In this document: positions 38,740 to 58,224 of the stretch, one piece after another | Position numbering within the stretch: position 1 is the stretch's first letter | Layout: the number at the start of each line of letters is the position of its first letter | DNA from: a virus | Lineage: Duplodnaviria > Caudoviricetes | IMG/VR virus record: IMGVR_UViG_3300042940_002972 | Location: 1 to 60,343 of that record | DNA length: 60,343 nucleotides | Direction: 5' to 3' (one strand) | Translations under genes and position numbers: made by a program | Notes under the pieces: model-generated | What the model was told of the DNA's origin: nothing | The model's input: the letters and a program-made list of their open reading frames with translations, nothing else | The model's database searches: none

Positions 38740-40026
38740 TTAACATGGACCTTCATATTCAATTACAAGACCTGAATTATCAACACGGTAATACCCCGTC
38801 AAAGAATCTGTACTATTAGTATACCAAAGGTTTCCACCATCAAATGGAGTAGTTAAACTACTATCTGTATAAAAAATAGTAACACCTACTATCACATCGA
38901 ACCAACCGAGCTCTGATGAATATATTGTTTGAGTAAGTGTTTTTGGGTCACATAAAGGTAATACGGAATCACCTGAGGAAATATTATATGGTGCGGATGC
39001 CGGAGTATTAGATGGTGTAATTGTAGGTGTTGGCGTAGGTGTGTTAGTTTGGGTTGGTGTAATGGTTGGAGTTGGTGTCACGGATGGATATGAAGAAAAA
39101 GAACAAGAGACTAAGGAGGACGCACCCACAAATTGAGTATTATGAACAAATGAACCACCAAAAGGAGAATTCATTTCAAATTTATAAATTCCCAAAAGGG
39201 TAAAAAGGTATGTTTTTCCTTCAAACTGTGCAATCCCTAATGGATTATTAAACGAACTATTTGAAACTGATTGAATTTGACTTCTAAATTCAAAATTACC
39301 TGTATTGTAATCGTACTGGTCTATTCCTATATAATAGACTCCAGAAATCTCTTGGAACCAACCATTTAGAAATTTACCATCACTTGTTATCATAAAAGTC
39401 CAATTTGAATTCTGTGGAAGTGTAAATTTTATAGTCCCACTCATCTGGGTTTGGGGTGGTGCCGGGATTGATAATTCCCATACATTCCAATCATAATCCA
39501 CGAAAACTAATTTGTTTGGGCCGGCAACACTTAAACCCCAAGAATTATTTAAAATTGGAACATTTGAAGGAAAATCCAACAACCTGTAATTCGGAGAAAT
39601 TGTATATGGTGGCTGTCCAGAAATATTCCATTCCCTAATAGTATATCTAAAACCAAATGGCGCGGGATATAATAACCATAAATTATCATTTGTATGAGCG
39701 ACTTGCCATGGATTTAAACCACCACCACTATTTGGGACTTGAAAGTTTACACTTATATCCAACAATGGATTATAATAGTAAGTCTGTCCAAAATTATTCA
39801 ATGTAATTAAAACACAATCAGGTAATGTTGAAAAAATTGTTTCGATAAAAATAGAATTTTCAAAAAAATTAGAGTAAGAAAGTGTTTCATCTAAAACCCA
39901 AAAAGATTTTGATTGGTTTGGGTTCAAAGGTACTTGATATTCCCACTCAGAGGTAAAACATTTTTGATAATTGAACGTAATTATATTGTCACCTGTATTC
40001 GATATTTTAATTTTTTTACAACTCAT
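38740..40026 (-). CDS. Modular Thr/Pro-linker protein, putative virion surface protein (paralog 1)
   Basis: Shared N-terminal module (NTG..FNYQKC..EWEYQV), a beta-rich domain homologous to one in 46351..50511, TPTPT linker, small C-terminal domain. Confidence 0.7.
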   Translation of the reverse strand: MSCKKIKISNTGDNIITFNYQKCFTSEWEYQVPLNPNQSKSFWVLDETLSYSNFFENSIFIETIFSTLPDCVLITLNNFGQTYYYNPLLDISVNFQVPNSGGGLNPWQVAHTNDNLWLLYPAPFGFRYTIREWNISGQPPYTISPNYRLLDFPSNVPILNNSWGLSVAGPNKLVFVDYDWNVWELSIPAPPQTQMSGTIKFTLPQNSNWTFMITSDGKFLNGWFQEISGVYYIGIDQYDYNTGNFEFRSQIQSVSNSSFNNPLGIAQFEGKTYLFTLLGIYKFEMNSPFGGSFVHNTQFVGASSLVSCSFSSYPSVTPTPTITPTQTNTPTPTPTITPSNTPASAPYNISSGDSVLPLCDPKTLTQTIYSSELGWFDVIVGVTIFYTDSSLTTPFDGGNLWYTNSTDSLTGYYRVDNSGLVIEYEGPC

Positions 40027-40039
40027 ATCGAAAATGTAT

Positions 40040-40417
40040 TTAACAACATCCTGTCTCGGAAATGAAACTATCTTGTACGTTTATATATAATTCCTCTCTG
40101 ATTGGTAATATTAAATTTCCCTCATCATTCTTGATAAGAAATTGACCTTGAAATCTACCTACTGTATTTGTATCTCGTGAAGTGAATCTAAAATAAACAT
40201 AGTATTCTGGTGTAGCACCCAAAGGGAGAGTAATGGAAGTTATGTAACAAGGAGCAGAGACAACTTTGGGTATACCAGTCTCGACGTTTATCATGGTAAA
40301 ATAAATTGTTGAGATTGGTAAAGCCTCCATTAGCTCCAAATATCCTGCTCTGCCATCTTTTACAACTTGCATTTTGAGAAGTGGTAAAGTGGCATTTTTT
40401 TTGATGAAAAATTCCAT
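40040..40417 (-). CDS. BppU-N-like virion adaptor protein
   Basis: FFIKKNATLP.L...YFRFTSRDTNTVGRFQGQF...LILP pattern; TATTTAT upstream. Confidence 0.55.
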   Translation of the reverse strand: MEFFIKKNATLPLLKMQVVKDGRAGYLELMEALPISTIYFTMINVETGIPKVVSAPCYITSITLPLGATPEYYVYFRFTSRDTNTVGRFQGQFLIKNDEGNLILPIREELYINVQDSFISETGCC

Positions 40418-40433
40418 AACAATAAATATACTG

Positions 40434-42107
40434 TTATGACTCTTTACGTAACTTTCTATCGTAGTGGTCGAACCTATTATGTTCGGTTGGTGTCATAAGA
40501 AGCAAGCCGGGTTTGAGTTTACCTGTAACAGTCTGTTGATACATATAACTCATCCATGTTTGTTCAAATGGGTGTGCCCAAGTTGTTTCCAAAAACATTT
40601 TTTTATTACCCGGTCTTGAAACTATTTGGGGCCAATTACAATAGTATATTTCACCTGTCGCATATGGTATACCCTTATGTGAATCAATTTTGGTGAATTT
40701 TGTTTTGGGTGCATTTGGGTCTAATCCCATATTTGGAAGACGAGGTTTTTCAGGCCAAAATTTTAATCTCACATCTTGAGGTACATTATACCAAGACCAT
40801 TGAGTACTATTATCACCGAAAAATTCTGAAAAATTTAATTTTAAAAAATCGAAATTTTCTTTTTTAACAATTTCTAAAGATTTAGAATATAGATTATCTG
40901 TGAACCTATTGAAACCATTTTTACAAACTTCTTGATTTGGATAGAAAAACATATCATCTTCAAAAAAAAGATAGTAATCTAATTCGGTTTCTTTATCAAA
41001 GTGTTCTGCAATCCATTGTCTCCCACCACAAATTCCTAAGTTGTCCTTTTTTATTTCTTCAAAATCATACTCGTCACATAATTGACTATAAGTTGAATCT
41101 GTTGTCCTATCAGTCGAATTATTCAAAAGAAATTTTTTTGTTTTCAATAAAAAATCTTTATCATAAGAATTCATTGATTGTATTAGGGTTTCAAATTGTT
41201 CCGGACTATTGAATGAAATGACATACAAACCTACCTTGTTTGTATCTAAGGATTCTTGAGAAACAAAACCACTTTCAGATTTTACTTGTAATTCATTATT
41301 TTTTAAATCCTCAAAAAATTTACCTATGAGACCATTACCTTCTATTTCAAAATAATTTATCAAATCTGAGTGTTTGTAACACATAATACTGAAAATAGAT
41401 TCTTCTGTTCCCATCAAACCCATGTCCAAGGTAGATTTCAATAAACCATAATAAATAGAATTTATTTCACCTATTGTATATTTTGGACCTCCGAAAAAAC
41501 CACCTCTTGCAACTTTGTCCACTTTATCACCTGCAATCTCATTTAGTTTTGAATATTCAAAACCGTGAATTTCATTATCCGCCTCATATGGAAAACAAAT
41601 AAAAGAAAATTTCGAAATATATTTAGAAAGATTATTTAGGACTTTGTCGTGTGTAAAATATCCTGGGTGTACTGTGTTTGTTATACCTCCATCAATCCAA
41701 AACATATACTCAGAGTTAAATTGGTCCATAATTTTCGCGTCATGAAGTAGAAAAACTTTTGACATAACCAAAGGGTTATAGTTTTCCAATTTTGATTGAG
41801 TTGAATCTCTGAGCCAACCTGCAAGATTTTTCCAATTTTCATTGTTTCTTATCAATTGGATTTTTTCAAAAAACTCATTTTCTCTAAACCAAGATAGCGG
41901 TCTTCTGATAAATTGTGTATTTTCTTTAGTTCTTTTTTTGAAAACGAACTCTTCAAGACTTTCGTCTCCAAAAATAATCAAGTTTTCAGAAACATTCAGA
42001 AGGGAATCAAATTTTTCTAAATAGTGTTCATAAGGTCTTTTCCAACCTTCATTTAATTCAGACCTGCCTATATCCCAAATACCTGTTACTAAAGTAATAT
42101 TATTCAT
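40434..42107 (-). CDS. Two-domain glycosyltransferase (WlaTC/HtrL-like plus GT-A domain)
   Basis: ITLVTGIWDIGR, FWIDGG, GGFFGG, GTEES in the N-domain; NLGICGGR and FFEDDM in the C-domain. Confidence 0.75.
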   Translation of the reverse strand: MNNITLVTGIWDIGRSELNEGWKRPYEHYLEKFDSLLNVSENLIIFGDESLEEFVFKKRTKENTQFIRRPLSWFRENEFFEKIQLIRNNENWKNLAGWLRDSTQSKLENYNPLVMSKVFLLHDAKIMDQFNSEYMFWIDGGITNTVHPGYFTHDKVLNNLSKYISKFSFICFPYEADNEIHGFEYSKLNEIAGDKVDKVARGGFFGGPKYTIGEINSIYYGLLKSTLDMGLMGTEESIFSIMCYKHSDLINYFEIEGNGLIGKFFEDLKNNELQVKSESGFVSQESLDTNKVGLYVISFNSPEQFETLIQSMNSYDKDFLLKTKKFLLNNSTDRTTDSTYSQLCDEYDFEEIKKDNLGICGGRQWIAEHFDKETELDYYLFFEDDMFFYPNQEVCKNGFNRFTDNLYSKSLEIVKKENFDFLKLNFSEFFGDNSTQWSWYNVPQDVRLKFWPEKPRLPNMGLDPNAPKTKFTKIDSHKGIPYATGEIYYCNWPQIVSRPGNKKMFLETTWAHPFEQTWMSYMYQQTVTGKLKPGLLLMTPTEHNRFDHYDRKLRKES

Positions 42108-42987
42108 ATATTCTATTAAACTCTTCTAAAATTTTATAAAAACTTTTGTTTTTCAAAAATAATTCTTCACTCGTACCTTGAGGTGCATTATCCCTACACC
42201 ACCAAATATCAAAGTGTTTCCTCACAAATAAATCGTTGTGATTGTAAAACATCAATGTCATTATTTGTTCTTCATGTGGCAAAAATTTACAAGAATCGTC
42301 TGACAAAATTTTTACAACATAATCTTCAAAAATACTAACCATGTTATCCCACTTATCTTTATGTCCTCCAAACAACCCACCAATAATGTGAATTTGTCTT
42401 ATGTAGTTTGTGTACCATTTTTGGTCAACAGTACCTGACCAGTAATTTCTTTCATTCTCTTTCCCCAGAATTAAAAATTTATCACTTGAGTCTATAATTA
42501 AATTATCTGAGAATGAATTATTGAACAGGGTACTTTCATAAAATCTTCTCATACCATGTGGAAAATTCAAATATTTCAAAGGTATGAGACCGCAATGTGA
42601 AAGTCCTGCATCAATCCAGTAGTAATAATCATACGACCTATCTTCGTTCCACCACCAAGAAAACTTTGAATATTGAATTTCAATACACCTATCACCCCTT
42701 TTAATTTCTTCAACGTTTTTTCTAAGATTTATTAAATCTTTGAACTTACAATTGTTCAAATCAAAAACCTGAAACTTTAACTTTTCTTCTGATATTTTGT
42801 TTTCCTCGTAGAAAAAATTTTTCAATGATTCCAATTCTCTTTCAGATGTATAACATAAAAAATCTGAGTTTGTCATTTTCAAAAGAGATAGAAGACTATA
42901 CCTATAATGAGTTCCTCGGGCAGGTCTACCGCCTAATTCAGTACCATTCAAATCACTATAGATTGCTGTTATAAATTTAATTTTCAT
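42100..42987 (-). CDS. WlaTC/HtrL-like glycosyltransferase
   Basis: FITAIY, YWIDAGL, GGLFGG, EEQIM; similar to the N-domain of the neighbouring gene. Confidence 0.7.
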   Translation of the reverse strand: MKIKFITAIYSDLNGTELGGRPARGTHYRYSLLSLLKMTNSDFLCYTSERELESLKNFFYEENKISEEKLKFQVFDLNNCKFKDLINLRKNVEEIKRGDRCIEIQYSKFSWWWNEDRSYDYYYWIDAGLSHCGLIPLKYLNFPHGMRRFYESTLFNNSFSDNLIIDSSDKFLILGKENERNYWSGTVDQKWYTNYIRQIHIIGGLFGGHKDKWDNMVSIFEDYVVKILSDDSCKFLPHEEQIMTLMFYNHNDLFVRKHFDIWWCRDNAPQGTSEELFLKNKSFYKILEEFNRIYE

Positions 42988-43720
42988 TATAGTGAAAATG
43001 TTTTTTTTCTTCTTTGAATTTATTATTTATTTCTTGATTCATGAATTTATGGTGTATTTTCACAGGGGAATATAGATTCCAATTATATGTTTGAGTATAA
43101 AAATTATTATACATCCCATGTGAAACATCCGAATATGAATTTTTTTGTGGTGCTATTGGTAAAATTGGAGTATATGATTGAAATTTGGGATACACATTTT
43201 TGACTAAGTGTTCGTCTATTGGAAGAACATAATCACCACTATGGAAAGCATAATCTTTTATTGACCTCACGGCATCTAAAACTTTTAAATCATAAATCAA
43301 AATATTCGTTGCAAATATTTCTGTCAATCTATCATTTGGTTTTGGAGGGAGATTAGTTATATCCAACAGCAAATTATATTTCGAGCTAATATTCACGGGT
43401 CTATTGAGTGTCGGTGCTAAATTCATAACACCGAATTCAATGTCCGATATTTGTGACTCAATGTCCTGAAGTAATGATTTACAATATGGCATGAATTGAC
43501 AATCATCCTCAATAATCATAACCTTTTCATACCCTCTCTTCTCAGATATTCTCAAAATTTCTAAATGAGATAATGTACATCCCATGTAACTATTTCTGTT
43601 TATTGCATTAAATAACTCGAAATCCCAACCGACATATTCTAACTCAGACTTTATATCTAATAATCTATCAGGCCTTGATTCCAAGTTTATTACAAACTTA
43701 GGTAACTCTTGAAACTTCAT
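42977..43720 (-). CDS. Glycosyltransferase family 25
   Basis: FVINLESRPDR, GCTLSH, IIEDDC, PIDEHL. Confidence 0.85.
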   Translation of the reverse strand: MKFQELPKFVINLESRPDRLLDIKSELEYVGWDFELFNAINRNSYMGCTLSHLEILRISEKRGYEKVMIIEDDCQFMPYCKSLLQDIESQISDIEFGVMNLAPTLNRPVNISSKYNLLLDITNLPPKPNDRLTEIFATNILIYDLKVLDAVRSIKDYAFHSGDYVLPIDEHLVKNVYPKFQSYTPILPIAPQKNSYSDVSHGMYNNFYTQTYNWNLYSPVKIHHKFMNQEINNKFKEEKKHFHYNEN

Positions 43721-44985
43721 TAGCTTACATGATTATGAGATAATTGTCCTGTTAGTCTGTCACACCAACCTTTTGATTCTGAATGTGGCCAAACAACCCA
43801 ATATTTAGGTAATACATCAGTTTGGAACTCTCTCCAAATTTTACAATATTTGTCAGGGTCATTCATAAGTCTAGAAATTTCAGACTTGTCGGCATCTTTT
43901 CTATACAAAGTTTCGTCATTAGGTCCATGAAACGCAACCACCCAAAAATCATAGTCCTTTTCAGGAACTGAAGAATAACCAACATCAATACAATGTTTAT
44001 AGACAGTACAAAAGGATTTTTTCCAATCTTCTTCCGATTCAATATTAGGACTTGGAGGATAGTTTTTATCTAAACACCATCTGTCTACAGCTCTTTTTTC
44101 AAATAAAAGACCTGAATATTTTTCATACTCTCTTAGTGTTCTTATGGGTCCAAAACCATATGGACCATCGTGCCCCTCTTGTTTTTCACCATCCATACCA
44201 AATAACTTTCTATTGGTAAGATGTGAATGTCTATTTTTATCTCCCCATGTTTTATCATCATCCCATTGTTTAGTCCTACCTTTACGAGTATACTCGTGAT
44301 AGATTACAGGAATATGTGGGTGAAATAAATCATAACCCCAAGTATAAGCTCTGGCGGCAATTGATATTTCTTCACCGTGAAAATAATATTCAGGATTGTG
44401 TTGTACCTCTTTTGCGAAAGAACCTAATGTAAAACAAAAATGTGCAGAATAAAATCTTGCAGGAACTGGCTTTTTCATTTCTCTCCAACCGGGAATTGTT
44501 TCAGGTAGAAAGAATACTGCACCCTCAGGAATAAATCTATCAAACGCCATTCTCCAAGCATCTTGAGCTCTTCCTTGTGGGTCATTATCAGGGTCAAAGG
44601 AGGGTACATAACCCGTAAGTAGAGGTTTTTTATACCCATCCTTTTGTAGACCCTTTATCATTTTGATTAGGATATCATCCCAATCTTTTACAAACCTCAT
44701 GTGAGAATCAATCTGCAATGTGTATTTTTCATTTTTATACAATTGTTGTACTAAATGTCTTGCCCAACAAACCCCTTTAGCTTCTTGATATGGAATGTCT
44801 AAAATTCTAAACCTCTCATCATTTCTCCATTCGTCTAAATTATCGAAACCATCAGTTTCTGAATATTGTCTAGCAATTCCTAAAACTAAATTTTCAGGTT
44901 TTTTTGCATTGGATAACATATCTTTTATTGTATGAACAAGTTGTGGGTCTCTGTAAGATGCAATTTGTATAAAAATTTTACTCAT
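43720..44985 (-). CDS. GT60-like polypeptide alpha-N-acetylglucosaminyltransferase (Skp1 Gnt1/TcOGNT-like)
   Basis: IFIQIASYRDP, GVCWAR, LQIDSHMRF (DxH), FHGEE, RAYTWGYDLFHP, YHEY. Confidence 0.82.
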   Translation of the reverse strand: MSKIFIQIASYRDPQLVHTIKDMLSNAKKPENLVLGIARQYSETDGFDNLDEWRNDERFRILDIPYQEAKGVCWARHLVQQLYKNEKYTLQIDSHMRFVKDWDDILIKMIKGLQKDGYKKPLLTGYVPSFDPDNDPQGRAQDAWRMAFDRFIPEGAVFFLPETIPGWREMKKPVPARFYSAHFCFTLGSFAKEVQHNPEYYFHGEEISIAARAYTWGYDLFHPHIPVIYHEYTRKGRTKQWDDDKTWGDKNRHSHLTNRKLFGMDGEKQEGHDGPYGFGPIRTLREYEKYSGLLFEKRAVDRWCLDKNYPPSPNIESEEDWKKSFCTVYKHCIDVGYSSVPEKDYDFWVVAFHGPNDETLYRKDADKSEISRLMNDPDKYCKIWREFQTDVLPKYWVVWPHSESKGWCDRLTGQLSHNHVS

Positions 44986-45011
44986 AAATTATATTTGGTA
45001 TAAAAATAAAA

Positions 45012-45035
45012 AACCTCCCGTGAAAGTGGAGGGTT
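45012..45035 (-). terminator. Intrinsic terminator between 45061..46293 and the glycosyltransferase operon
   Basis: Minus strand AACCCTCCAC-TTTC-ACGGGAGGTT followed by a T run. Confidence 0.65.
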
Positions 45036-45060
45036 GATATTTTATTTAAATAAATTTTTT

Positions 45061-46293
45061 CTACGTACAACTATATGGTCCCGAATCTTGATTTATCAAT
45101 CCTCCAGTCACAACATACTCAGTCCCGTCTGTACAGATAGAATAAGATGATGCGTCAGGAATGAAATGAGAATAAGGATTACCATCACAACCAATCCATT
45201 CTATTGAACCTCCACCAACACCGGCACTTAAAGTATATCCACTACAACTTGGAAGTCCTGATGTTAGAGAAGGTGTGGGTGTTGAAGTTGGTGTTTCAGT
45301 GTTAGTTGGAGTTACACTTGGTGTTACGGTATTAGTCGGTGTGACGGTTGGAGTTTCTGTATTAGTCGGAGTCACACTTGGTGTTGCTGGTATTGTTGAT
45401 GTTGGTGTAGGTGTCACTGTATTTGTAGCGGTTATTGAAGGTGTTGGTGTGTTAGTACTAGTAGGACTTGGCGTAAGCGTGGTTGTTGGAGTGACAGTTG
45501 GTGTAGGGGTATTGGTAGGGGTTTTTGTCGGTGTGATTGTAGTTGTCGGGGTTGGTGATGGCGTAGGTGGTGGCGCCGCACTCAATGCACATAAACTAAT
45601 TCTAACACCTTGATATTGAATGCTTGGTCCCTGAGAAAATGTTATTTGGGTAAAAGGTGTGGTTGTTTCAACAATAAATCTGGCTAACCCATCAGTATTG
45701 ACAGCAGTTATTACTCCATTACCAATCTGCATAGGACAACCCGCACATTGAGCAATATTTGGAGTTCCCGCGTTCGTTGTTATATATAATCTGTCTCCGT
45801 TTGAAGCATCACCATTCCACACACCTGAATTAAACATCAGAGAGTTTAGTGGTTGACTAAAAATAAAAACTATTGTTGAACCCGAAGCAAAAGAACTCAC
45901 GCCACCAGGTCCAGGCCCAATTGTGATTGGAACTCCCTGACATGGGTAGTTGTTTGGACCGTATGTGAAAGTATTTGTTGCACAGTTTGCATTTTGTGAA
46001 AGACCTGTTATTGATATACCGTTACTAACAACAACCTGACCGTTACAGGGTGTATTTATGGTATTACAGGTTGTGCAATTTTCCGCCCCTCTAAAAAAGT
46101 TTTCTGTTTGTATATCTACATTCTGTAAAAAAAATGATGGAATCGCAAAAGTGTCCGAGATAGCCCAGACTCTTTTGGTTTCATTAGGTAAAACTTTCAC
46201 CTGATATTCCCACTCTGCGGTAACACATTTCTGATAATTAAAAGTGACAAGAGTATCTCCTGTATTTTTCAGGGTGTATTTAAAACAATTCAT
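45061..46293 (-). CDS. Modular mucin-like Thr/Pro-rich protein (paralog 2)
   Basis: Shared N-terminal module, Cys-containing beta domain, ~105-aa TP/TN-rich tract, small Cys C-terminal domain. Confidence 0.75.
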
Positions 46294-46350
46294 TTTTTTT
46301 ATTTATATAATCCGAAATTTTAATTTTTGTCATAGTTCCAAATGAATATT

Positions 46351-49300
46351 TTAAACGTTCAGAACTGCACTTATGTAAACAGTCTGCCCTGTGTTCCAAC
46401 TAGTTGATGCTGATTGAATCAAAACAGCGTTACCTGTGTTCCCTGTAATTGGCGGAACACTGATTCCTGTACCGAACACAAATCCATCGCCCGCAACACC
46501 TGGAGGTGTTCCTGTATTAGCTGACCAATATTTGAATGCGTTTGTATCACCAGAGTAAATCGCGGTACTTCCTGTTTGAGTCATTGTAATTGTAATACTT
46601 TGACCTGTAAATTGTGAGAAATAATTTGTTCTATCAATTCCATCAGTGTCAATTGAGTTCCAATATATTCCTCTACCACTTGTTGTCAATTCATTTGGAT
46701 TTGTACTTCCTGAAGTGATTGAAGGAGCACTATTCATAATTGTATTACCCGTTGTTGGAAAATTGTATGGTAATACAATTAAATTAAATGAATATCCTGT
46801 TACTGGTTCAGGTGTAACACTTGGTGTTGGCGTTAATGTTGGAGTAACTGATGGTGTTCCAGTATTAGTTACACTTGGTGTTGGCGTACTTGTAGTTGTT
46901 GGTGTAGGTGTTACTAAAGTTGCCTCACATGCTGCACAGTTAACATAGAAAAGAAGTGGTGTTGCACCGTCTGTTGGAGTTGCCACGGTCTTCTCAACAA
47001 TTCTATAACATCCACTTGGTGTTCCTCCTGTGAATGTGAAATTGAATACGTCACCAGATGCTAATGTCGATGGTCCTAAATCAGCAACTAATACGTTCAA
47101 AGTGGTACATCCCGAAATTGTGTATGTAGTAACCGAACTTAAGTCAGTTGTAGTTGGTGTTGGTGTGTTCGTTGGTGTTTCACTAGGTGTTTCACTTGGG
47201 GTTTCAGTTATTGTTGTAGTTGGTGTTTGAGTTAAAGTTGGTGTAGGGGTAGGTGTTGGTGATAATGTTCCTATAACACAAATATCAACAGCCCCTTCAT
47301 TAGGAGTGAAAAGAGGGAAGAATACATGTAATGGTTGTGTTACAGCGTTGGTTGATGTGTAAATTAAAGTTGAATTATAATAATACTTTACACTTATTCC
47401 ATCATAATCCACTTTCCACACATCAGATGATGAAACAACAGTACCGACATTTAAAACGGCAACTTGACCACCGTTTTCATATATTTCAATTTGGTCACTA
47501 TTATACAGGTAAATACCATATGACGTATCCTCATATGTGCTGCCAGGGGTAGCGGTTGGGTTGTAAGAGAATCCACCCATTAAAATATTACCATTCGCAG
47601 AAGTTTGGAAGGTTACGGAAACAGGACCAGTAAATGTCTCTAAAGAATATGCCGATGAATCCCATCCTGATGTTCCATCATTTATCGCACTATTACTTGT
47701 TGTTGTAGCATTGTTACCTATGAAAGTAAATGTTTCACAGTTTAAAATTGGTGATGGAGTTGGAGTTTGTGTTGATGTGTTTGTTGGTGTAGGTGTAGAG
47801 GTTGATGTTTCGGTATTTGTTGGTGTAGGAGTAGATGTTAAAGTTTCAGTTGGTGTGTTAGTTGCTGTTTCAGTAGGTGTATTAGTTGGAGTTTCACTTG
47901 GTGTATTAGTTGGGGTTGGAGTTATATTAGAAATCTCACAATCATTACATCCACCATATCCAAATGATGCGGTAAACGCGTCGTCTATCGGAGCATTTAT
48001 CTTACCAATGACTGAATAACATCCACTTGGTGTTGCTCCTGTGAATGTGTAATAGTTTACATCTCCAGGAACTATTAATCCTGGTCCTAAATCGACAACT
48101 AAAACATTTAGATTAGTACATCCTGAAATTGTATATGTAGTTATAGTACTTAAATCTGTAGCCGTAGGAGTTGGTGTTGGTGTAGGTGTTTCAGCGGCTT
48201 GGGTTTCCGTTGCTGTAGGAGTTGGTGTATTTGTGGGAGTTTCACTGCTTGTTGCTGTAGGTGTTGGTGTTGGTGTTTCAGTCGGTGTAGGAGTGGAAGT
48301 CTCAGGTAGTGGAGTACATGAACCATCCTCCGCCAAGATAGTCAGAGCCGTTTCACAATTGAATGTTATACCATTGAAATCATAATTTGAAGGACCTGTA
48401 CCTGTTATATTTGAACAATAAACGTTACCAAAACTGTCTGTTAGTGTTATTTTTTGTGCGGCAACAGAGTTGAATACAGAAACTCTAACGTCTACGGTAC
48501 CAACAGTAGTCGAACACAAGAATGTTCCATTACCTGGTGTGTTAGGTAACGGTTGACCCGAAACATAAGTAGCCGAACTTCCATTTATTGTGACGCCCTC
48601 TATGCTAACGTCAAGAGATGAGTTTGTTAGAATATTAATTTCACAACATGTTTTTGTAGAGGTTGGTGTGAATGTCGGTGTACAAGTTGGTGTCTCAGTT
48701 AAAGTTGGTGTGCAAGTTTTTGTCACAGTAGGAGTTGGTGTAGGTGTCTCAGCAACCTGAGTTTCTGTATTAGTTGGAGTAGGTGTAGGTGTCTCAGTTA
48801 AAGTTGGTGTGCAAGTTTTTGTCACAGTAGGAGTTGGTGTAGGTGTCTCAGCTGCTTGAGTTTCTGTAGCGGTTGGAGTAGGAGTAGGTGTTTCAGCTGC
48901 TTGAGTTTCTGTAGCGGTTGGTGTAGGAGTAGGTGTTTCAGCTGCTTGAGTTTCTGTAGCGGTTGGAGTAGGAGTAGGTGTCTCAGCAACCTGAGTTTCT
49001 GTATTAGTTGGAGTAGGAGTAGGTGTTTCAGCTGCTTGAGTTTCTGTAGCGGTTGGAGTAGGAGTAGGTGTTTCAGCTGCTTGAGTTTCTGTAGCGGTTG
49101 GAGTAGGAGTAGGTGTTTCAGCTGCTTGAGTTTCTGTAGCGGTTGGAGTAGGAGTAGGTGTTTCAGACTCTGTTGGAGTACAAGAAGGTGTTACACCAGG
49201 TGTAGCCGTATTTGTTACTGTAGGAGTAGGTGTAGGTGTTATATCACAAATACATGACCCACTATACACAATATTAGAAACGTGTTGTCCTGTTATAGAT

Positions 49301-50511
49301 TCATTTTGAATACAAACACCTGTCAACGTATAACCTGTTCCTATAGTATAAGGTCCTGAATAATCACAGTTTCCACAACAATCGATATACTCAATTACAG
49401 AATTATTACAGTCAATATCGAATGAAGCATATGAATAACATAGTTGTGAAGTAGGTGTTGGAGTTGGAGTTACAGGCACTGTTGAAGTTGCGGTGGGTGT
49501 AACTCCCGTAAAAGTTGTTGGCGTAACAGTTGGTGTTGTTGTCGGTGTTGGAGTAGGTGTGGGAGTCTCTGAACCAATCATAAATGCGGTATTACATTTT
49601 ATAGTCGATGATGCTCCCTGCGCACCTAAATTCGATATCCTCACACCACCATACGGTGATGTCTTATCCATTTTATAAACATAAACACCATAAATGTATA
49701 TTTCGTTGTTGAATATTGCAATACCTCCCGTACCAGTAAGGTTATCTATCGCAACAGTTTTACTTTCAAATTCAAAATTACCTGTATTATAATCGAATTG
49801 ATATAATACAATATATGGAACTCCTCCTATTTCTTTATCTGAAGCAACCAATAATTTACTATTTACGGTGACCAAAAAATCACCACCCACAAAATAACCC
49901 GGGGGTAGTTGATATTTCAACGTTCCTGTCATGAGTGTAGACGGTGCTGTTGGTATTGTAAGCTCCCAAACGTTCCTTTCAAAATCAATGAATACCAAAT
50001 CACCATTCGGTGCTTGACAAAGACCAGGGCTAGCAGGAGCAGTGATAACAATATTATTCGGAAAAGTCAAATCCCTGTAAGTTGAAGAGACTTGGTAAGG
50101 TGGGTCACCTAACAGACTCCATTCTCTAATAACATAAGTAAAAGGTGCAGGGTTATATAATTTCCAAAGTTTTTCTTGTGAATGTGCAACATCTAACGAT
50201 TGTGTAATATCATTTGGTATAACCATTTGAGGACCCCTAATATTTGTTGAGGGATTGTAATAGAAAGTTCCCACACCAAAAATATTGACTAAGGTAACAC
50301 ACTCTGGTATAGTCTCTAAAACCTCCTCAACTGATGTTGTGTTGGAAAAAAAATTTGGGATATTCAAAGTATCTTTTATTGCCCAAATTGTTTTATTTTG
50401 ATTTGGAGCAAGTTTGACCTGTGATTCGAATTCGGAATTATCACATCTTTGATAACTGAAAGTGACTACGGTAGTACCACTATTTTTTATACTATATTTA
50501 ACACAATTCAT
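46351..50511 (-). CDS. Large modular mucin-like Thr/Pro-rich protein (paralog 3)
   Basis: Shared N-terminal module; small Cys-containing domains separated by six Thr/Pro tracts; one internal domain (TYTISGC...TPSGCY) is duplicated. Confidence 0.78.
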   Translation of the reverse strand: MNCVKYSIKNSGTTVVTFSYQRCDNSEFESQVKLAPNQNKTIWAIKDTLNIPNFFSNTTSVEEVLETIPECVTLVNIFGVGTFYYNPSTNIRGPQMVIPNDITQSLDVAHSQEKLWKLYNPAPFTYVIREWSLLGDPPYQVSSTYRDLTFPNNIVITAPASPGLCQAPNGDLVFIDFERNVWELTIPTAPSTLMTGTLKYQLPPGYFVGGDFLVTVNSKLLVASDKEIGGVPYIVLYQFDYNTGNFEFESKTVAIDNLTGTGGIAIFNNEIYIYGVYVYKMDKTSPYGGVRISNLGAQGASSTIKCNTAFMIGSETPTPTPTPTTTPTVTPTTFTGVTPTATSTVPVTPTPTPTSQLCYSYASFDIDCNNSVIEYIDCCGNCDYSGPYTIGTGYTLTGVCIQNESITGQHVSNIVYSGSCICDITPTPTPTVTNTATPGVTPSCTPTESETPTPTPTATETQAAETPTPTPTATETQAAETPTPTPTATETQAAETPTPTPTNTETQVAETPTPTPTATETQAAETPTPTPTATETQAAETPTPTPTATETQAAETPTPTPTVTKTCTPTLTETPTPTPTNTETQVAETPTPTPTVTKTCTPTLTETPTCTPTFTPTSTKTCCEINILTNSSLDVSIEGVTINGSSATYVSGQPLPNTPGNGTFLCSTTVGTVDVRVSVFNSVAAQKITLTDSFGNVYCSNITGTGPSNYDFNGITFNCETALTILAEDGSCTPLPETSTPTPTETPTPTPTATSSETPTNTPTPTATETQAAETPTPTPTPTATDLSTITTYTISGCTNLNVLVVDLGPGLIVPGDVNYYTFTGATPSGCYSVIGKINAPIDDAFTASFGYGGCNDCEISNITPTPTNTPSETPTNTPTETATNTPTETLTSTPTPTNTETSTSTPTPTNTSTQTPTPSPILNCETFTFIGNNATTTSNSAINDGTSGWDSSAYSLETFTGPVSVTFQTSANGNILMGGFSYNPTATPGSTYEDTSYGIYLYNSDQIEIYENGGQVAVLNVGTVVSSSDVWKVDYDGISVKYYYNSTLIYTSTNAVTQPLHVFFPLFTPNEGAVDICVIGTLSPTPTPTPTLTQTPTTTITETPSETPSETPTNTPTPTTTDLSSVTTYTISGCTTLNVLVADLGPSTLASGDVFNFTFTGGTPSGCYRIVEKTVATPTDGATPLLFYVNCAACEATLVTPTPTTTSTPTPSVTNTGTPSVTPTLTPTPSVTPEPVTGYSFNLIVLPYNFPTTGNTIMNSAPSITSGSTNPNELTTSGRGIYWNSIDTDGIDRTNYFSQFTGQSITITMTQTGSTAIYSGDTNAFKYWSANTGTPPGVAGDGFVFGTGISVPPITGNTGNAVLIQSASTSWNTGQTVYISAVLNV
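48850..49164 (-). repeat. 45-bp coding tandem repeat, 7 copies (ETPTPTPTATETQAA)
   Basis: Near-identical units GTTTCAGCTGCTTGAGTTTCTGTAGCGGTTGGAGTAGGAGTAGGT; copy 4 is a NTETQVA variant; related units continue to about 48690. Confidence 0.95.
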
Positions 50512-50520
50512 TTTTTTTAT

Positions 50521-50799
50521 TTAAGGGGCTGACGATGGTGTTGGTGTTGGTGTTGGTGTTGGTGTAGGAGTGGGTTCGGGTGTATTACTTGGTGTTGGTG
50601 TTGGAGGGAATGTTGTTTCGGAAATAATAATATTGAAACCCGCAGCATAAGAAAATGTACTTGTCACACACCAAATATTTTTTGTTTCGTTGGGATTCAA
50701 CTGAACTTGATATTCCCATTCTGAATTACTGCATTCTTGATAGTTGAAAGAAACAACTGTACTACCGGTGTTAGTTAGAGATAGTTTACTACAGGCCAT
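50521..50799 (-). CDS. Minimal paralog 4: shared N-terminal module plus PT tail
   Basis: MACSKLSLTNTGSTVVSFNYQECSNSEWEYQVQLNPNETKNIW followed only by a (PT)n tail. Confidence 0.8.
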   Translation of the reverse strand: MACSKLSLTNTGSTVVSFNYQECSNSEWEYQVQLNPNETKNIWCVTSTFSYAAGFNIIISETTFPPTPTPSNTPEPTPTPTPTPTPTPSSAP

Positions 50800-50843
50800 A
50801 TTTTTTTATTTATAAATACTTTATTTCCAAAATAAATTTGGAA

Positions 50844-53057
50844 TTATGGACATAATCCTATGTTTACAATCAAACCAGTACCAGGGTCTATTTGAATAAA
50901 TTTACCACCATCAGTTATAATACTTTCTGAACCTATTGGGGGTATGCTACAAAGTAAGTTACCATAAACAAAATCCCCTGGTTGTAATTCTGTCCATGGT
51001 ACAAATGAATATATTTGTACATTAGCGGGTCCATATCCCGCCATCGAACAAGCATTATTCCAAACAGAATCTGTCCATAAATTATCTGAATAAACTACTT
51101 GTGGTGTAATTGATGGAGTAGGTGTATTTGTAGGAGTTACAGGTGGAGTAGGTGTATTTGTAGGAGTTACAGGTGGTGTAGGCGTTTGAGACGGCGGTGG
51201 AACTATACAATTCGGACAATTTGGGTCTAATAAATTATATCTATTTTTCAAAACCCTGAAATTGTGTGCAACCTGCGCAGCATTCAATGGTTCAGTATAC
51301 ATTCTAAAGGCACTTATATTACCTATAAAACTACCAGCAAATAATTCCTCTAGTCTAATGTTTGTTGTAAGTCCCGAATAAATTGTATTATTCAAATCTT
51401 CAGTGGTCAAACATTCAGGGTCTTGTTGATAAACGATATCATCAATTGTTGGCGGACACCCACCCGAGAAAGTTAAATTGTCATGTAACCCTTGAGTTCC
51501 TCCCCCAATAGAAATATTATAACCAACACCAATTTGTTTCTCTCTTGGTGTATTTAAAAGTCTCGGAATTATTTCTTCAAAATCCAAAATGACCATAAAC
51601 AATCTACCATTTATATAAATTTCCAAGTCACCGATTCTGAAATTTTTCTCTTCCATCCAAGAATCTTTGAATTTTACAATTTCAGTTGTTGCTGGGTCAT
51701 AAACTTCTCTATGTGTAAGAGGTGGTTCTATCAAACTCAAGCTATTGTTGGCAGTTGTTGCGGTGTATTGTTCCGAAACCAATAATCCCAATCCTCCCAA
51801 ATCCAACAAATCACATCCCTCAAAATATTCTCGTCTTCTAAAAACAACGTCAACTTGAACCCAATTTTCCTGAAGTATATAATTTGTATTGTCGCAATCA
51901 TGAAAAATACCCCTTGTCGAACACCATTCGTTTACCGAGGTTCCCGTAACATAAGTTTGTGCCGAGGTACAGACGCCCGTAAATTCGCAAGCACCTGTGA
52001 TTGTATAAGTTTTCACACATATTCTTGGATTACCGCTATCTCCAGATAGTCTGACTGATAGAGCATTAGAAATTCCATCATATAACGGGTCCAATTCAGG
52101 TACAGATGCTTCTGCTGTCGGTTGACCACAACCACACAAACAGGTATAAGATGTTACACCCGATGGTTGATAAACAGGAATACACGAATGCTCGGCAGTA
52201 ATACCAGTGTTCAAACACTCACAAGTATGCATACATGTCAATCCTGAAGTAACCCTTGTGTAACCTGTATCTTGTTTTGGTGAGCCGTCTGCATAGTGAT
52301 AAAATTTGTTTTCGGCTCTTGCCCCCATATAAAAAAATGTACCCTTGTTTTCAGGATATCTTTTATTCAATCCAACGTAGGTGTCCCCCCACCATCTATG
52401 TTTTAACATAAATTCGGCAGTCCATCCTAAACTAACCCTTTCAGGAAATACCTGATAATCATAACCGGGTATTTTATAAAACCCTTGAAAAAATCCACCG
52501 AATAAATCTGCAACATAACCTACAGATGCGTTTTCATAGGCATATTCCAACTGATATGTATATGAGTCATCGTTCCATAATCTATTCTGAGTTGTTGTAA
52601 AACCCGTTATTGGATGTAGTTTCATCCTTCTATCATACTTGTACCTACTGAACTTATCAGAAATATTTGTGTATAACCCAGTTGTAATTTCAATCGTTTC
52701 TCCTGACATTTTCTCTACTAACCCATTATCAATTCCCGTAAGACCAACATCACAAAGAGTAGATGCTGAAGGACATAAATTCGGGTCAATATCAGATGGA
52801 TTCCAATAATTTTGTGAAACAATTGTATCACTACTAAAATGACAATCATTATTTTGACATATTGTTGTACCTGTTGAATCAAAATCAAATTTGAAAGGCA
52901 TTCTATTACCATCATCCTCCCCTATCAGTAATGGAGAAAAAACCACTTCTTGGTCGTAATCTTTTTCATCGCTAGCAAGACATAAATCTGTAACCTCATT
53001 AAAGGGGATTAGTCTCCATTTTTGGAAATTGTATTGATTAATATTCTGATAAGACAT
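50844..53057 (-). CDS. Putative virion protein with LamG/ConA-like elements, PT linker and C-terminal domain
   Basis: LEIYING and FIGNISAFRMYTEPLNAAQVAHNF are LamG-like; TPTPPVTPTN repeats; TATTTAT upstream. Confidence 0.6.
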   Translation of the reverse strand: MSYQNINQYNFQKWRLIPFNEVTDLCLASDEKDYDQEVVFSPLLIGEDDGNRMPFKFDFDSTGTTICQNNDCHFSSDTIVSQNYWNPSDIDPNLCPSASTLCDVGLTGIDNGLVEKMSGETIEITTGLYTNISDKFSRYKYDRRMKLHPITGFTTTQNRLWNDDSYTYQLEYAYENASVGYVADLFGGFFQGFYKIPGYDYQVFPERVSLGWTAEFMLKHRWWGDTYVGLNKRYPENKGTFFYMGARAENKFYHYADGSPKQDTGYTRVTSGLTCMHTCECLNTGITAEHSCIPVYQPSGVTSYTCLCGCGQPTAEASVPELDPLYDGISNALSVRLSGDSGNPRICVKTYTITGACEFTGVCTSAQTYVTGTSVNEWCSTRGIFHDCDNTNYILQENWVQVDVVFRRREYFEGCDLLDLGGLGLLVSEQYTATTANNSLSLIEPPLTHREVYDPATTEIVKFKDSWMEEKNFRIGDLEIYINGRLFMVILDFEEIIPRLLNTPREKQIGVGYNISIGGGTQGLHDNLTFSGGCPPTIDDIVYQQDPECLTTEDLNNTIYSGLTTNIRLEELFAGSFIGNISAFRMYTEPLNAAQVAHNFRVLKNRYNLLDPNCPNCIVPPPSQTPTPPVTPTNTPTPPVTPTNTPTPSITPQVVYSDNLWTDSVWNNACSMAGYGPANVQIYSFVPWTELQPGDFVYGNLLCSIPPIGSESIITDGGKFIQIDPGTGLIVNIGLCP
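51115..51174 (-). repeat. 30-bp coding tandem repeat, 2 exact copies
   Basis: GGAGTAGGTGTATTTGTAGGAGTTACAGGT twice, encoding the [10 protein letters not shown] linker unit. Confidence 0.9.
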
Positions 53058-55702: not shown

Positions 55703-56914
55703 ATGTCAAAAATCAATGTTCTTGTTATTCCTTCCGACCGTACAGGGGTTGGTAAATTTAGGTCTGTTGACCCTCACATTTTTTTACAAAATCTTTATCC
55801 TGATGATTTTCATGTAGATATAATCTACGATGTACCTATTGAGGACATTGAATTTTTCAAAAAATATCAAATTGTTGCATTTCACAGAAGTTTGAATCCT
55901 GATTTTGAGAAATCAAATGACATGTTAAAAAAATTACAGTCTACTGATGTTATCACAATTGATGATATCGATGATTATTGGATGCCAGGCAAAGAACATC
56001 CAATACACGACATAATCAGATTTAATAAGATAAACGAAAAAATTGTTGCAAATCTTAGAGAAGCAAAATACGTAACAACAACAACTTCCCTATTTGCAGA
56101 TGAAATTAAAAAAATAAACAAGAACGTAATTGTTTTTCCAAATGCAATAAATCCCGATGAATCTCAATTCAAAGAAAAAACTTCAGAATCAGACAGACTG
56201 AGAATTGGTTGGCTTGGAGGCTCATCACATTTACACGATATTCAATTATTGGATGGTTCGTTTAGTAAACTAACCTCTATATCCAAAAACCTACAATTTG
56301 TACTTTGTGGATTTGACACAAGAGGTACTATCACAGAAATCAACCCTCAAAATGGTGAACACAAGAAAAGAAATATTTTACCACATGAAACGGTTTGGGC
56401 TAATTATGAAAAAATCTTCACGCAGAATTATTCAATAGTTTCAGAAACATATAAAAAATACTTATTAGACTTCACCCAAGTAGAATATACAAGTGAGACT
56501 AGTGAATCATATGTTCGTGTTTGGACAAAACCTGTTCAGTCTTACGCAAAAAATTACTCAAAGTTTGACGTATCCTTGGCCCCTATTAAAAATACTATGT
56601 TTAATAGGATGAAATCTCAATTAAAGGTAATCGAGGCGGGTTTTTATAAAAAAGCAATAATTGCCTCTAATTTAGGACCTTACACAATAGATTTGGTACA
56701 TTCACTTCAAAATGGTAATTTTGTGGATGGTAATGCACTTCTCGTAGATGAAAACAGAAATCACTCAGATTGGGCTAAGTATATTGAAAAACTTCAAAAA
56801 AATCCCAATTGGGTAAAAGACTTAGGTGAAAGACTTTATGAGACTGTAAAAGATAAATACGACTTGAGAGTTGTTACCAAACAAAGAGCTGAATTTTATA
56901 AATCACTTGTATGA
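55703..56914 (+). CDS. GT-B fold glycosyltransferase (GT4-like)
   Basis: DIDDYW, RIGWLGGSSHLHD, DVSLAP, FNRMKSQLKVIEAG, IIASN. Confidence 0.82.
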   Translation: MSKINVLVIPSDRTGVGKFRSVDPHIFLQNLYPDDFHVDIIYDVPIEDIEFFKKYQIVAFHRSLNPDFEKSNDMLKKLQSTDVITIDDIDDYWMPGKEHPIHDIIRFNKINEKIVANLREAKYVTTTTSLFADEIKKINKNVIVFPNAINPDESQFKEKTSESDRLRIGWLGGSSHLHDIQLLDGSFSKLTSISKNLQFVLCGFDTRGTITEINPQNGEHKKRNILPHETVWANYEKIFTQNYSIVSETYKKYLLDFTQVEYTSETSESYVRVWTKPVQSYAKNYSKFDVSLAPIKNTMFNRMKSQLKVIEAGFYKKAIIASNLGPYTIDLVHSLQNGNFVDGNALLVDENRNHSDWAKYIEKLQKNPNWVKDLGERLYETVKDKYDLRVVTKQRAEFYKSLV

Positions 56915-57612
56915 TAAACACCCCTATTGACAAATTACTATTTTTAGACATCGAAACCGTTGGTGTTGAAAAAGATTGGGAATCCCTTCAGAAAAATAAC
57001 GAACCTCTCTCTTTTCAGTTTGAAAACTACTTTGATTGGTTTCAAAAAAGGTTTCCTGAGGATGCAAACAAACCCATATCTGAAATGTTTATCAATAGGG
57101 CTGCTCTTGTGCCTGAATTTAATAGAATTGTTTGTGTAAGTGTTGCATTTATAAACAAAAAAGGTGAAGTAAAAATTGAATCACATAATGATGTTGACGA
57201 AAAAAAATTATTACTAGAAGTTCAAAAAATTTTATATAAAGTAGGAGAGCTCGGTTTTCATTTATGTGGACACAATGTCAAAGGGTTTGACATTCCTGTA
57301 TTAGCTAAAAGGATGATAATAAATGGAATTTTACCTCCGAAAATTCTACCAGGTCACGACACTAAGCCATGGGAAATTAAAGCTCTTGACACCAAAGAAG
57401 TTTGGCAATACGGAGGGTATGGCTCAATTGCATCATTAGAATTGATGTGTGTTTGTTTAGGAGTACCCTCACCTAAAACTATGGAGGTTACAGGTAATAA
57501 AGTTCATGAAGCCTTTTGGATAAAGAAAGATTACGACGGTATAAAAAATTATTGTGAAGCGGATGTTTTATCTTTGATAAACGTTATAAAAAAATTAAAT
57601 CAATTAAAATGA
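56911..57612 (+). CDS. Stand-alone DEDD 3'-5' exonuclease (PolB exonuclease-related)
   Basis: FLDIET, GHNVKGFDIP, YCEADV. Confidence 0.85.
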   Translation: MINTPIDKLLFLDIETVGVEKDWESLQKNNEPLSFQFENYFDWFQKRFPEDANKPISEMFINRAALVPEFNRIVCVSVAFINKKGEVKIESHNDVDEKKLLLEVQKILYKVGELGFHLCGHNVKGFDIPVLAKRMIINGILPPKILPGHDTKPWEIKALDTKEVWQYGGYGSIASLELMCVCLGVPSPKTMEVTGNKVHEAFWIKKDYDGIKNYCEADVLSLINVIKKLNQLK

Positions 57613-58214: not shown

Positions 58215-58224
58215 AACTTTTTGT

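Follow-up and report, generated by a model that had tools for sequence, protein, structure and literature searches.

A GT60-type glycosyltransferase gene recurrently paired with Thr/Pro-linker genes in several phage lineages: a candidate pathway for cytoplasmic O-glycosylation

A GT60 gene lies among genes for Thr/Pro-linker proteins

We analyzed a block of ten open reading frames (ORFs) in a phage genome fragment, in which a glycosyltransferase (GT) gene of family GT60 and three further GT-type genes lie among five genes for proteins with long Thr/Pro (TP) tracts. The fragment, hereafter called the window, is the whole 60,343-bp IMG/VR record IMGVR_UViG_3300042940_002972. As CheckV estimates its completeness at 19% and complete relatives measure 317-326 kb (one of them with terminal repeats), the window is a piece of an uncultured jumbo tailed phage genome of about 320 kb. 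The pairing of GT60 genes with TP-linker genes recurs in several phage lineages, and on balance we lean towards the explanation that the phage encodes soluble enzymes that sequentially O-glycosylate its own TP linkers in the cytoplasm. What can be seen directly is which genes are present, to which family the putative initiator belongs and how it folds, that every part is soluble, and that GT60 genes are repeatedly paired with TP tracts. The ten ORFs (38740-53057) are all on the minus strand and lie where an earlier reading of the letters alone, below called the original prediction, had placed them; the four GT-type genes overlap successively by 1, 11 and 8 nt, and the operon abuts the gene for a family-B DNA polymerase (PolB).

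The initiator candidate is a GT60 enzyme with a fold closest to polypeptide GalNAc-transferases

The GT60 gene (43720-44985, minus strand) encodes a protein of 421 aa, with a GT-A domain in residues ~1-300 and a beta-rich C-terminal domain in residues ~325-414. The protein matches Pfam family PF11397 ('GlcNAc') with E=4.6e-68 and 230.7 bits against a cut-off of 21, over profile positions 94-350 and an N-terminal stretch. A search of the window's own record gave 190.8 and 39.5 bits. It also aligns end to end with phrog_24687 (E=6.2e-163). The AlphaFold (AF2) model is confident (predicted local distance difference test, pLDDT, 94.7; predicted template modeling score, pTM, 0.89) and has a GT-A fold. 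When this model was compared with the PDB using Foldseek, the top matches were the polypeptide GalNAc-transferases (ppGalNAc-Ts) GalNAc-T2, T4, T1, T10 and T12, with E-values down to 2.6e-11. VIA-align likewise returned only ppGalNAc-Ts at ranks 1-29 (Z 18.9-22.0, 262-310 residues aligned, root-mean-square deviation 3.4-3.9 except for one row at 6.9); generic GT-A enzymes scored no higher than Z 17.0. Both the profile search and the structure prediction, which the original prediction had proposed as checks on this gene, therefore bear out its GT60 identity, with the GT27 polypeptide GalNAc-transferases as the nearest fold.

In an alignment of 37 sequences (35-87% identity), residues D93, H95, E206 and H230 are invariant and S94 is nearly so; by analogy, we take the D-x-H motif and the downstream His to be metal-binding in the window enzyme. 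At the sequence level, no PDB chain was found by phmmer with the single sequence, and none with the 37-sequence profile at E up to 1; Pfam assigns the protein to PF11397 only, and we found no sequence-level membership of GT27. As GT27 chains are not matched by sequence, we class the 421-aa protein as a GT60 enzyme that, judging from its model, resembles GT27 in how it works without being a member of that family. Pfam reported no lectin family in the C-terminal domain (325-414) at E up to 0.1, and no ricin-type domain was detected there. The maximum 19-residue hydropathy of the protein is 0.76 and an N-terminal hydrophobic segment is absent by this crude test, as in the soluble Gnt1 type. GT60 enzymes with known activity modify protein hydroxyls, adding GlcNAc to a hydroxyproline (Hyp) of Skp1 or to T. 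cruzi polypeptides (PMC6939170).

Within the block, the GT60 gene is the most conserved one, present in 80 of 80 related loci with a median identity of 85% (80% for PolB). The GT60 of the window has 507 relatives in IMG/VR and 6,819 homologous protein clusters. The family as a whole is large, with 4,598 representative clusters, many of them in giant multi-GT proteins, and annotations of it exist for uncultured tailed phages, Megaviridae and Pandoravirus. An IMG/VR scan with the distant GT60 representative P0245 found no viral relative.

GT60 genes and Thr/Pro tracts occur together in several lineages

We compared three sets of viral loci, each dereplicated at 95% GT60 identity, and considered a locus informative when at least 3 kb was available on both sides of the GT60 gene. 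The 80 loci of the window clade gave 28 representatives; each of the 20 informative ones has a TP-tract ORF no more than 3 kb from GT60, and all 51 such ORFs are on the GT60 strand. Before dereplication, 77 of the 80 loci have TP ORFs, and the other three have under 1 kb of upstream sequence. The second set, which we named L106-like after one of its loci, has GT60 proteins ~38% identical to that of the window (49 representatives); here a TP ORF lies within 3 kb in 31 of 41 informative representatives, with 41 of 42 TP ORFs near GT60 on the same strand. Up to 1 kb from GT60, this lineage has 38.9 TP ORFs per 100 kb, against 2.7-5.8 at 1-8 kb. Its recurrent partner is a family of ~535 aa in which Cys-rich domains are joined by pure (TP)n linkers, and BLAST found no similarity between the L106-like TP proteins and those of the window. 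At L106 itself, a lone GT60 gene directly follows the gene for a 402-aa protein in which three linkers are pure (TP)n, and replication genes lie just downstream; PHROGs gave nothing on the neighbors of this GT60 gene.

The association also holds at the level of whole genomes. All eight complete GT60-bearing genomes contain 5-29 TPTPTP-coding tracts each, against 0-1 for a reversed-pattern control. Seven large phages of our own choosing that are negative for PF11397 (Atu_ph07, SCTP-2, RaK2, P-SSM2, HTVC008M, phiKZ and Bacillus phage G; 2.45 Mb together) contain 0, 0, 0, 1, 0, 0 and 0 such tracts. The original prediction had proposed testing whether GT60 and TP-rich genes co-occur in related phages. 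They are adjacent in two of the three GT60 lineages and occur together in the genomes (8/8, with at most one tract per control), but are not adjacent in the third set, gathered around the GT60 of phage XacN1 (0/12). The outcome that it had named as adverse, a GT cluster common in relatives without TP genes, mostly did not occur.

The Thr/Pro tracts link small domains in multidomain proteins

With a strict TP tract defined as a 20-residue window with at least 75% T+P, the whole 60,343-bp contig contains exactly five ORFs with such tracts (29, 47, 158, 32 and 34 residues), and these are the five that had been flagged and that indeed surround the GT genes. Of the 700 residues in their linkers, 277 are Thr, 51 Ser and 168 Pro. 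All are encoded on the minus strand, and we refer to them as TPa to TPe. TPa (38740-40026, 428 aa) consists of an N-terminal domain, a propeller-like region, a TP linker of 37 residues and a C-terminal domain of 82 residues; most relatives have no gene with this N-terminal domain at the corresponding position, between the 125-aa gene described below and PolB. TPb (45061-46293, 410 aa) has the same type of N-terminal domain followed by a Cys-rich domain, a 113-residue TP linker and a 61-residue C-terminal domain. The largest, TPc (46351-50511, 1386 aa), has a beads-on-a-string architecture, in which the N-terminal domain and a propeller-like region are followed by seven small, mostly Cys-containing domains with 479 linker residues. 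Its N-terminal part is homologous to TPa 1-309, two of its segments (789-859 and 1126-1196) are 55% identical to each other, and it has 33 Cys in total. Within its gene, Tandem Repeats Finder detected a 45-bp repeat of 7.5 copies (48830-49166; 93% matches, score 597), which encodes a 15-residue TP/TETQAA unit. TPd (50521-50799, 92 aa) has nothing but the N-terminal domain and a TP tail of 34 residues, which makes it the smallest candidate substrate; relatives have orthologous small forms of 97-124 aa and forms of 68-71 aa with the N-terminal domain alone. Complex prediction of GT60 with TPd returned no answer (score 0.01, mark 0.32) and speaks neither for nor against binding. TPe (50844-53057, 737 aa), without the N-terminal domain, has a conserved body of 617 residues, a 37-residue TP linker and an 83-residue C-terminal domain, and was found in 46 of the 80 loci with a median identity of 73%.

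Structure searches against the Atlas gave leads on the globular parts. Residues 67-309 of TPa matched propellers of the SGL/tachylectin/DUF4394 type (TM-scores of 0.53-0.63), and the ~310 residues common to TPa and TPc were placed with six-bladed lectin/SGL-type propellers. The TPe body probably has a ConA/LamG-like part, its nearest Atlas clusters being viral and including Laminin_G_3 families (0.94-0.95).

A feature that the original prediction had not remarked on is the N-terminal domain of ~55 residues (the N-domain) common to four of the five TP proteins (49-58% identity). In the 80 related loci, this family has 78 complete members of 68-1143 residues, and in 73 of these the match begins at residue 1. 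In several relatives, an ORF of 68-71 aa encodes the N-domain alone and stops shortly after a conserved F-P-P (L019:8248-8457, L049:8574-8783, L084:1736-1945, L025:3827-4036 and others), and a TP-rich ORF starts ~30 nt later in the same or another frame. Such ORFs may reflect gene splitting or recoding, or may encode genuine small proteins. Another array of similar genes occurs in XacN1, where ORF232-237 (L115, XacN1 124048-133104) are six tandem hypothetical genes of similar size that hold many of the TPTPTP-coding tracts of this genome and recall the N-domain paralogues of the window.

The window also shows plus-strand ORFs inside the TP genes (45275-45613, 46646-46948, 47711-48019 and 48856-49257; 100-133 aa). 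These are mirror frames of TP codons, with Gly/Val- or Cys/Ser/Arg-rich products, and are almost certainly not genes.

A constant initiator is followed by candidate extenders that vary between relatives

Directly after the GT60 gene lies a gene (42977-43720, minus strand) for a 247-aa protein of family GT25, a candidate extender. It matches PF01755 with E=3.4e-11 and 43.8 bits against a cut-off of 24; since the best stretch covers residues 46-96 and only part of the profile, the GT25 call rests on the conserved core. A sequence search of the PDB gave weak matches to procollagen galactosyltransferase 1 (E 0.09-0.14). The protein is divergent in relatives (median identity 54%) and missing from 10 of the 80 loci.

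The next candidate extender is an HtrL-like protein of 295 aa (42100-42987, minus strand). Pfam, PHROGs and NCBIfam gave no match for it, and its assignment comes from profile-profile alignment with the HtrL domain of the following gene, using hhalign (E=5.4e-5, probability 67%, end to end over columns 5-255 against 4-251). The two have WIDxG and GGxFGG motifs in common, and BLASTP aligns them at equivalent positions (E=5e-4). The following gene (40434-42107, minus strand) encodes a two-domain protein of 557 aa, with an HtrL_YibB domain at residues 3-255 and a GT-A-like domain at ~285-530. The HtrL_YibB match (PF09612, E=5.9e-21, 75.7 bits against a cut-off of 24.1) covers 253 of 267 profile positions and was found in 23 of 23 orthologues. 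Scored against TIGR02192, the protein reaches 79.4 bits where the trusted cut-off is 264.9, which excludes a YibB equivalog; by these profile scores, we regard it as a distant member of the HtrL_YibB family and not as a YibB orthologue. Its C-terminal half carries an invariant E383-D384-D385, matches phrog_842 at E=4.1e-4, and gives PF00535 in 2 of 23 and TAGT in 1 of 23 orthologues (E=0.012). The AF2 model is poor (pLDDT 58); VIA-align aligned residues 282-537 with GT-A-fold enzymes at Z 8.4-10.8, one row paired residues 1-253 with the blood-group enzyme GTB (Z 9.6), and Mimivirus R699 was among the fold matches. No PDB match was found by sequence, whether with the single sequence or with a profile. 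Profile matches and model thus only weakly suggest that the C-terminal half is a GT-A domain. The gene is present in 80 of 80 clade loci and in 15 of 18 distant loci. The original prediction had described four overlapping, co-oriented genes with five catalytic domains: the arrangement of the genes stands, and the number of catalytic domains is no more than plausible, as HtrL is without demonstrated activity and the C-terminal half of the 557-aa protein is weakly GT-A. A gene for a conserved protein of 125 aa (40040-40417, minus strand) always comes after the GT genes (75 of 80 loci, median identity 78%), and no family was found for it in any library searched.

Relatives differ in what follows GT60. 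Ten of the 80 loci lack the GT25 gene, the HtrL-like gene or both, and the variant cassettes examined carry FkbM and CmcI-type sugar O-methyltransferases, a GT10 fucosyltransferase, GT4 or a PLOD-type GT domain. A constant initiator with exchangeable tailoring enzymes is how a direct, stepwise pathway with strain-specific glycans would be expected to look in sequence. The gene order on which the original prediction had remarked, initiator first and extenders after, held across relatives, with a constant GT60 followed by variable genes. In XacN1, a 46%-identical GT60 (ORF334) is followed by homologues of both HtrL genes, and the pair of GT60 and HtrL/GT-A genes is kept in 15 of 18 loci fetched with the XacN1 GT60. 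In Xoo-sp13 and XacN1, a gene for a 765-aa carbamoyltransferase lies between the GT60 and HtrL genes (L003:13399-15696, L004:13415-15712), which suggests carbamoylated sugars in this lineage. XacN1 virion glycoproteins have been reported by authors who list only two GTs and name neither a substrate nor a motif (PMC5852040).

Hydroxylated Pro as an acceptor was considered as well. PF13640 (P4H-type 2OG-Fe(II) oxygenases) is represented by three genes each in two complete relatives, G001 and G002, far from the GT60 locus (in G001 at 28772-29065, 152970-153233 and 162023-162214), and by none in XacN1 and Xoo-sp13. These enzymes could make hydroxyproline acceptors; PF13640 is a broad family, and we treat the match as a lead.

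A soluble pathway acting on Thr/Pro linkers is favored over other explanations

According to the explanation that we favor, the GT60 protein (43720-44985) would be a cytoplasmic relative of the mucin-initiating polypeptide N-acetylhexosamine (HexNAc) transferases and would place the first sugar directly on hydroxyls of Thr, or possibly of hydroxylated Pro, in the TP linkers. The GT25, HtrL-like and HtrL plus GT-A enzymes would then extend this sugar, a role that in relatives would fall to the fucosyl-, methyl- and other transferases found in their place. The substrates would be beads-on-a-string multidomain proteins with lectin-like and Cys-rich modules, most likely surface fibers or adhesins of the virion, and glycosylation may render their linkers stiff, extended and protease-resistant. 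We infer the acceptor, the donor sugar and the order in which the enzymes act. A hydropathy scan, which is a crude test, found no signal-like or transmembrane-like stretch in any of the ten block proteins (maximum 19-residue Kyte-Doolittle mean 1.55), in agreement with the earlier statement that the TP proteins lack signal peptides. Because the block proteins have no such segments, direct transfer in the cytoplasm fits and a lipid-linked route does not. Within the window, the block has no transmembrane-like segment and no family of a PglB/PglL-type route (oligosaccharyltransferase, flippase or transmembrane phosphoglycosyltransferase).

Several points weigh against this explanation. Glycosylation of these proteins has not been observed so far, and TP linkers serve as plain, unglycosylated spacers in many proteins. 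Neither Pfam nor PHROGs gives the TP proteins a structural annotation, so that their virion location is likewise something we infer, and the propeller and LamG readings of these proteins are Atlas leads only. None of the 12 XacN1-like representatives has a TP-tract ORF as near as 3 kb. Of the undereplicated 18 loci retrieved with the XacN1 GT60, 9 have no TP ORF within 10 kb; a locus with a GT60 72% identical to that of the window (L102) is among those without one at this distance. Ten of the 41 informative L106-like representatives also lack a TP ORF within 3 kb. Synteny within a clade is not independent evidence, nor are the contrasts between sets of loci and between genomes independent of phylogeny, and the genome contrast amounts to about three GT60 lineages against seven self-chosen controls. 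Furthermore, TP tracts are dispersed in complete genomes, over at least five regions in G001 and about eight in XacN1, and two TP genes of G001 have no recognizable GT neighbor in the stretch examined. The local nesting of the GT genes among TP genes, which the original prediction had described, is therefore true of the window and in part a matter of clade-specific synteny: it does not extend beyond the clade, given the five or more regions in complete relatives and the XacN1-like loci. If the explanation is right, the dispersal of TP tracts would mean that the enzymes act in trans across the proteome, and tight linkage would then characterize two lineages without being required. Finally, GT25 and HtrL are families known from lipooligosaccharide (LOS) loci, and HtrL has no demonstrated activity (PMC4172580).

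This last point, together with the lack of adjacency at XacN1-like loci, makes an envelope glycan the main alternative. The GT genes would then build or remodel a non-protein glycan (host LOS or lipopolysaccharide (LPS) core, capsule or another envelope glycan), and the TP tracts would be nearby flexible linkers. PF01755 is in fact named 'LPS biosynthesis protein' and, like HtrL_YibB, is a family found in LOS loci (PMC4172580), and GT9 'heptosyltransferase'-type genes accompany other TP clusters. The absence of transmembrane segments does not exclude it either, because LOS-core transferases are also soluble or peripheral. We nevertheless think it unlikely, considering that the lead and most conserved enzyme is a GT60, the characterized members and closest folds of which all act on polypeptides, that TP-tract ORFs are enriched about ten-fold within 1 kb of GT60 in a lineage in which GT60 can stand without GT25 or HtrL, that GT60 and TP tracts are linked at the genome level, and that virion glycoproteins are reported in XacN1 (PMC5852040). 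The sharp enrichment of unrelated TP-linker genes beside GT60 in two lineages, and the presence/absence pattern of TP tracts across genomes, would also be left unexplained if, as in mycobacteriophages and chloroviruses, the targets were other virion proteins instead of TP linkers, for example subunits of the capsid or tail tube. The enzymes closest in structure, in addition, prefer acceptors with dense Thr and flanking Pro. We therefore give targets of this kind a small chance, in spite of the extensive virion glycosylation mentioned for mycobacteriophages (PMC12582341, citing Freeman 2023), the precedent of PBCV-1 Vp54 cited in the XacN1 paper (PMC5852040) and the lack of adjacent TP genes at XacN1-like loci; it is possible that other virion proteins are glycosylated, which would not exclude TP targets.

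A role in DNA modification, in which the transferases would glycosylate modified phage bases against restriction in the style of the T-even phages and the PolB neighbor would reflect that role, appears very improbable to us. It draws on the position of the operon next to PolB and on the weak resemblance of the C-terminal GT-A domain of the 557-aa protein to DNA-base glycosyltransferases (beta-glucosyl-HMC alpha-glucosyltransferase, phrog_842, E=4.1e-4; TAGT in 1/23, E=0.012), a resemblance that also counts against our preferred explanation. The fold of the GT60 enzyme is that of a polypeptide transferase, and the fucosyl- and sugar O-methyltransferase cassettes imply complex oligosaccharides that differ from known DNA sugars. 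A search of 5 genomes for Tet_JBP, made without a positive control, found none, and the sole ThyA-family gene of each genome scores as a true thymidylate synthase (E 1e-79 to 1e-96), which is not decisive.

Glycosylation of the phage's own TP linkers may also be one instance of something wider. We consider it conceivable, as a more tentative proposal, that a widespread and modular 'phage mucin' system exists, in which a conserved GT60 seeds the TP linkers of hypervariable surface proteins and swappable extenders give a strain-specific glycan coat, so that protein modules and glycans would co-diversify with effects on adhesion, host range and protection. The ~55-residue N-domain might then be a shared anchor or targeting module, a hydroxyproline route would be possible, and the phage enzymes could be a counterpart, perhaps a reservoir or source, of the eukaryotic GT60 and GT27 enzymes.

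Known glycosylation systems resemble parts of the locus

The Skp1 pathway of Dictyostelium and Toxoplasma (PhyA, the GT60 enzyme Gnt1, PgtA and further GTs) starts with an enzyme of the same PF11397/GT60 family as that of the window (PMC6939170). In both cases, the enzymes are soluble; those of the Skp1 pathway are cytoplasmic and add sugars stepwise and directly to a protein, as those of the window would, and in both an initiator is followed by multi-domain extender GTs; the three P4H-type oxygenase genes in each of the complete relatives of the window phage add to the likeness. Skp1, however, receives one glycan on one Hyp, whereas the window has hundreds of candidate Thr/Pro sites in low-complexity linkers; its locus contains no oxygenase, and its extenders come from other families (GT25 and HtrL). 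The mucin-type GT27 enzymes and the GT60 enzymes of T. cruzi resemble the window enzyme in the closest solved folds (GT27), the D-x-H motif, the dense Thr/Pro candidate acceptors and an extra C-terminal beta-rich domain. Unlike GT27 enzymes, the window enzyme has no sequence match to that family, no detected ricin-type lectin domain, no membrane anchor and no secretory pathway, and it belongs to a bacteriophage.

Among viruses of eukaryotes, PBCV-1 and Mimivirus (with its fibrils) offer a parallel in clusters of virus-encoded soluble GTs and methyl- and fucosyltransferases that decorate virion surface proteins, and GT60-like models exist for Megaviridae and Pandoravirus; their hosts are eukaryotic and their acceptor proteins are different. 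The glycan linkages of giant viruses differ as well. In mycobacteriophages, the targets are capsid and tail-tube subunits, and the enzymes belong to other GT families. In mycobacteriophages and XacN1, phage GTs have been proposed or shown to modify the phage's own virion proteins in the bacterial cytoplasm (PMC12582341, PMC5852040). Pro/Thr linkers between small globular modules are also found in cellulases, for which linker glycosylation is described (PMC3490864, PMC8209791). Cellulases are secreted and glycosylated by host machinery outside the cytoplasm, whereas the window proteins lack signal peptides and the transferases are encoded by the phage.

Self-glycosylation by phages and annotated phage genes of the GT60 type are thus already known. 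The pairing of GT60 with TP linkers and swappable extenders in phages was not found in print, in a literature search that was thin on subscription journals. To our knowledge, protein glycosylation in bacteriophages has only recently been recognized and very few systems are known. As the locus combines a recognizable mucin-class initiator, a simple repeated acceptor motif and a candidate substrate of 92 residues, a few steps in E. coli would suffice to test our preferred explanation. The 507 IMG/VR relatives indicate an abundant lineage. If the explanation is true, many environmental phages would carry glycan-coated fibers, with consequences for adsorption, protease resistance, aggregation and recognition; the enzymes would be a source of soluble activities from the bacterial cytoplasm for making mucin-like glycopeptides; and the system would bear on the origin of the eukaryotic cytoplasmic (GT60) and Golgi (GT27) initiators.

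Other genes of the window and of its relatives

The GC content of the window is 31-41%. Besides PolB, it encodes a ribonucleotide reductase, a DnaB-type helicase, an exonuclease, a UvsX-like recombinase, a single-stranded DNA-binding protein (SSB), a dUTPase, a baseplate hub, a tail sheath, two giant ORFs without a family and two further GTs. PolB has no close cultured relative, its best match being to Salinibacter phages at ~23% identity. A megablast search of the whole block against 50,697 phage records gave no match, and a tRNA search gave none. Promoter and terminator scans (68 against a shuffle mean of 64.5, and 10 against 8.7, respectively) showed no excess and yielded no operon boundaries.

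Both further GT genes, which the original prediction had not noted, are on the plus strand, on the other side of the TP block, and possibly belong to the same glycan pathway. The first (55703-56914) is GT-B/GT4-like, matching phrog_7162 ('glycosyltransferase', E=1.9e-42) and, under its cut-off, PF13692 (E=6.4e-4). The second (58395-60026) encodes a two-domain protein of 543 aa, of GT2 type with the N-terminal domain of GT4 enzymes (PF13712, E=2.9e-29; PF13439, E=5.6e-12; PF00535, E=3.3e-6). In this region (55703-60343, plus strand), the GT genes are interleaved with genes for a 3'-5' exonuclease and a dUTPase, and the last ORF runs past the contig end.

In G001, a second TP cluster (949, 456 and 1433 aa, one of them with SprB repeats; L085:2339-16718, at about 305-320 kb) adjoins a GT9 gene, the gene for a 1229-aa FkbM/GT4/GT9 protein and another FkbM methyltransferase gene. 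TP and GT genes are thus co-located a second time, which speaks for our preferred explanation. SprB repeats (PF13573) were found in G001 at L085:2339-5188 and L086:7342-9000 (E=4.5e-8 and 1.5e-25). The SprB repeat is known from a gliding-motility adhesin of Bacteroidota, and its presence hints at a Bacteroidota host or gene source. It also raised the possibility that the TP proteins are secreted, for example by a type IX secretion system, which we rejected as their N-termini are not signal-like.

On the minus strand, beside the tail genes, lie the two giant ORFs (8628-15422, 2264 aa; 15735-20744, 1669 aa), for which we found only a weak tail-protein PHROG and a weak OmpA match; the second contains one short, loose TP tract. 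On the plus strand, an ORF of 497 aa (32890-34383) encodes a superoxide dismutase fusion, with complete Fe/Mn superoxide dismutase domains (PF00081 and PF02777, E down to 5.5e-39) in its first ~215 residues and a remainder of ~280 residues without a family.

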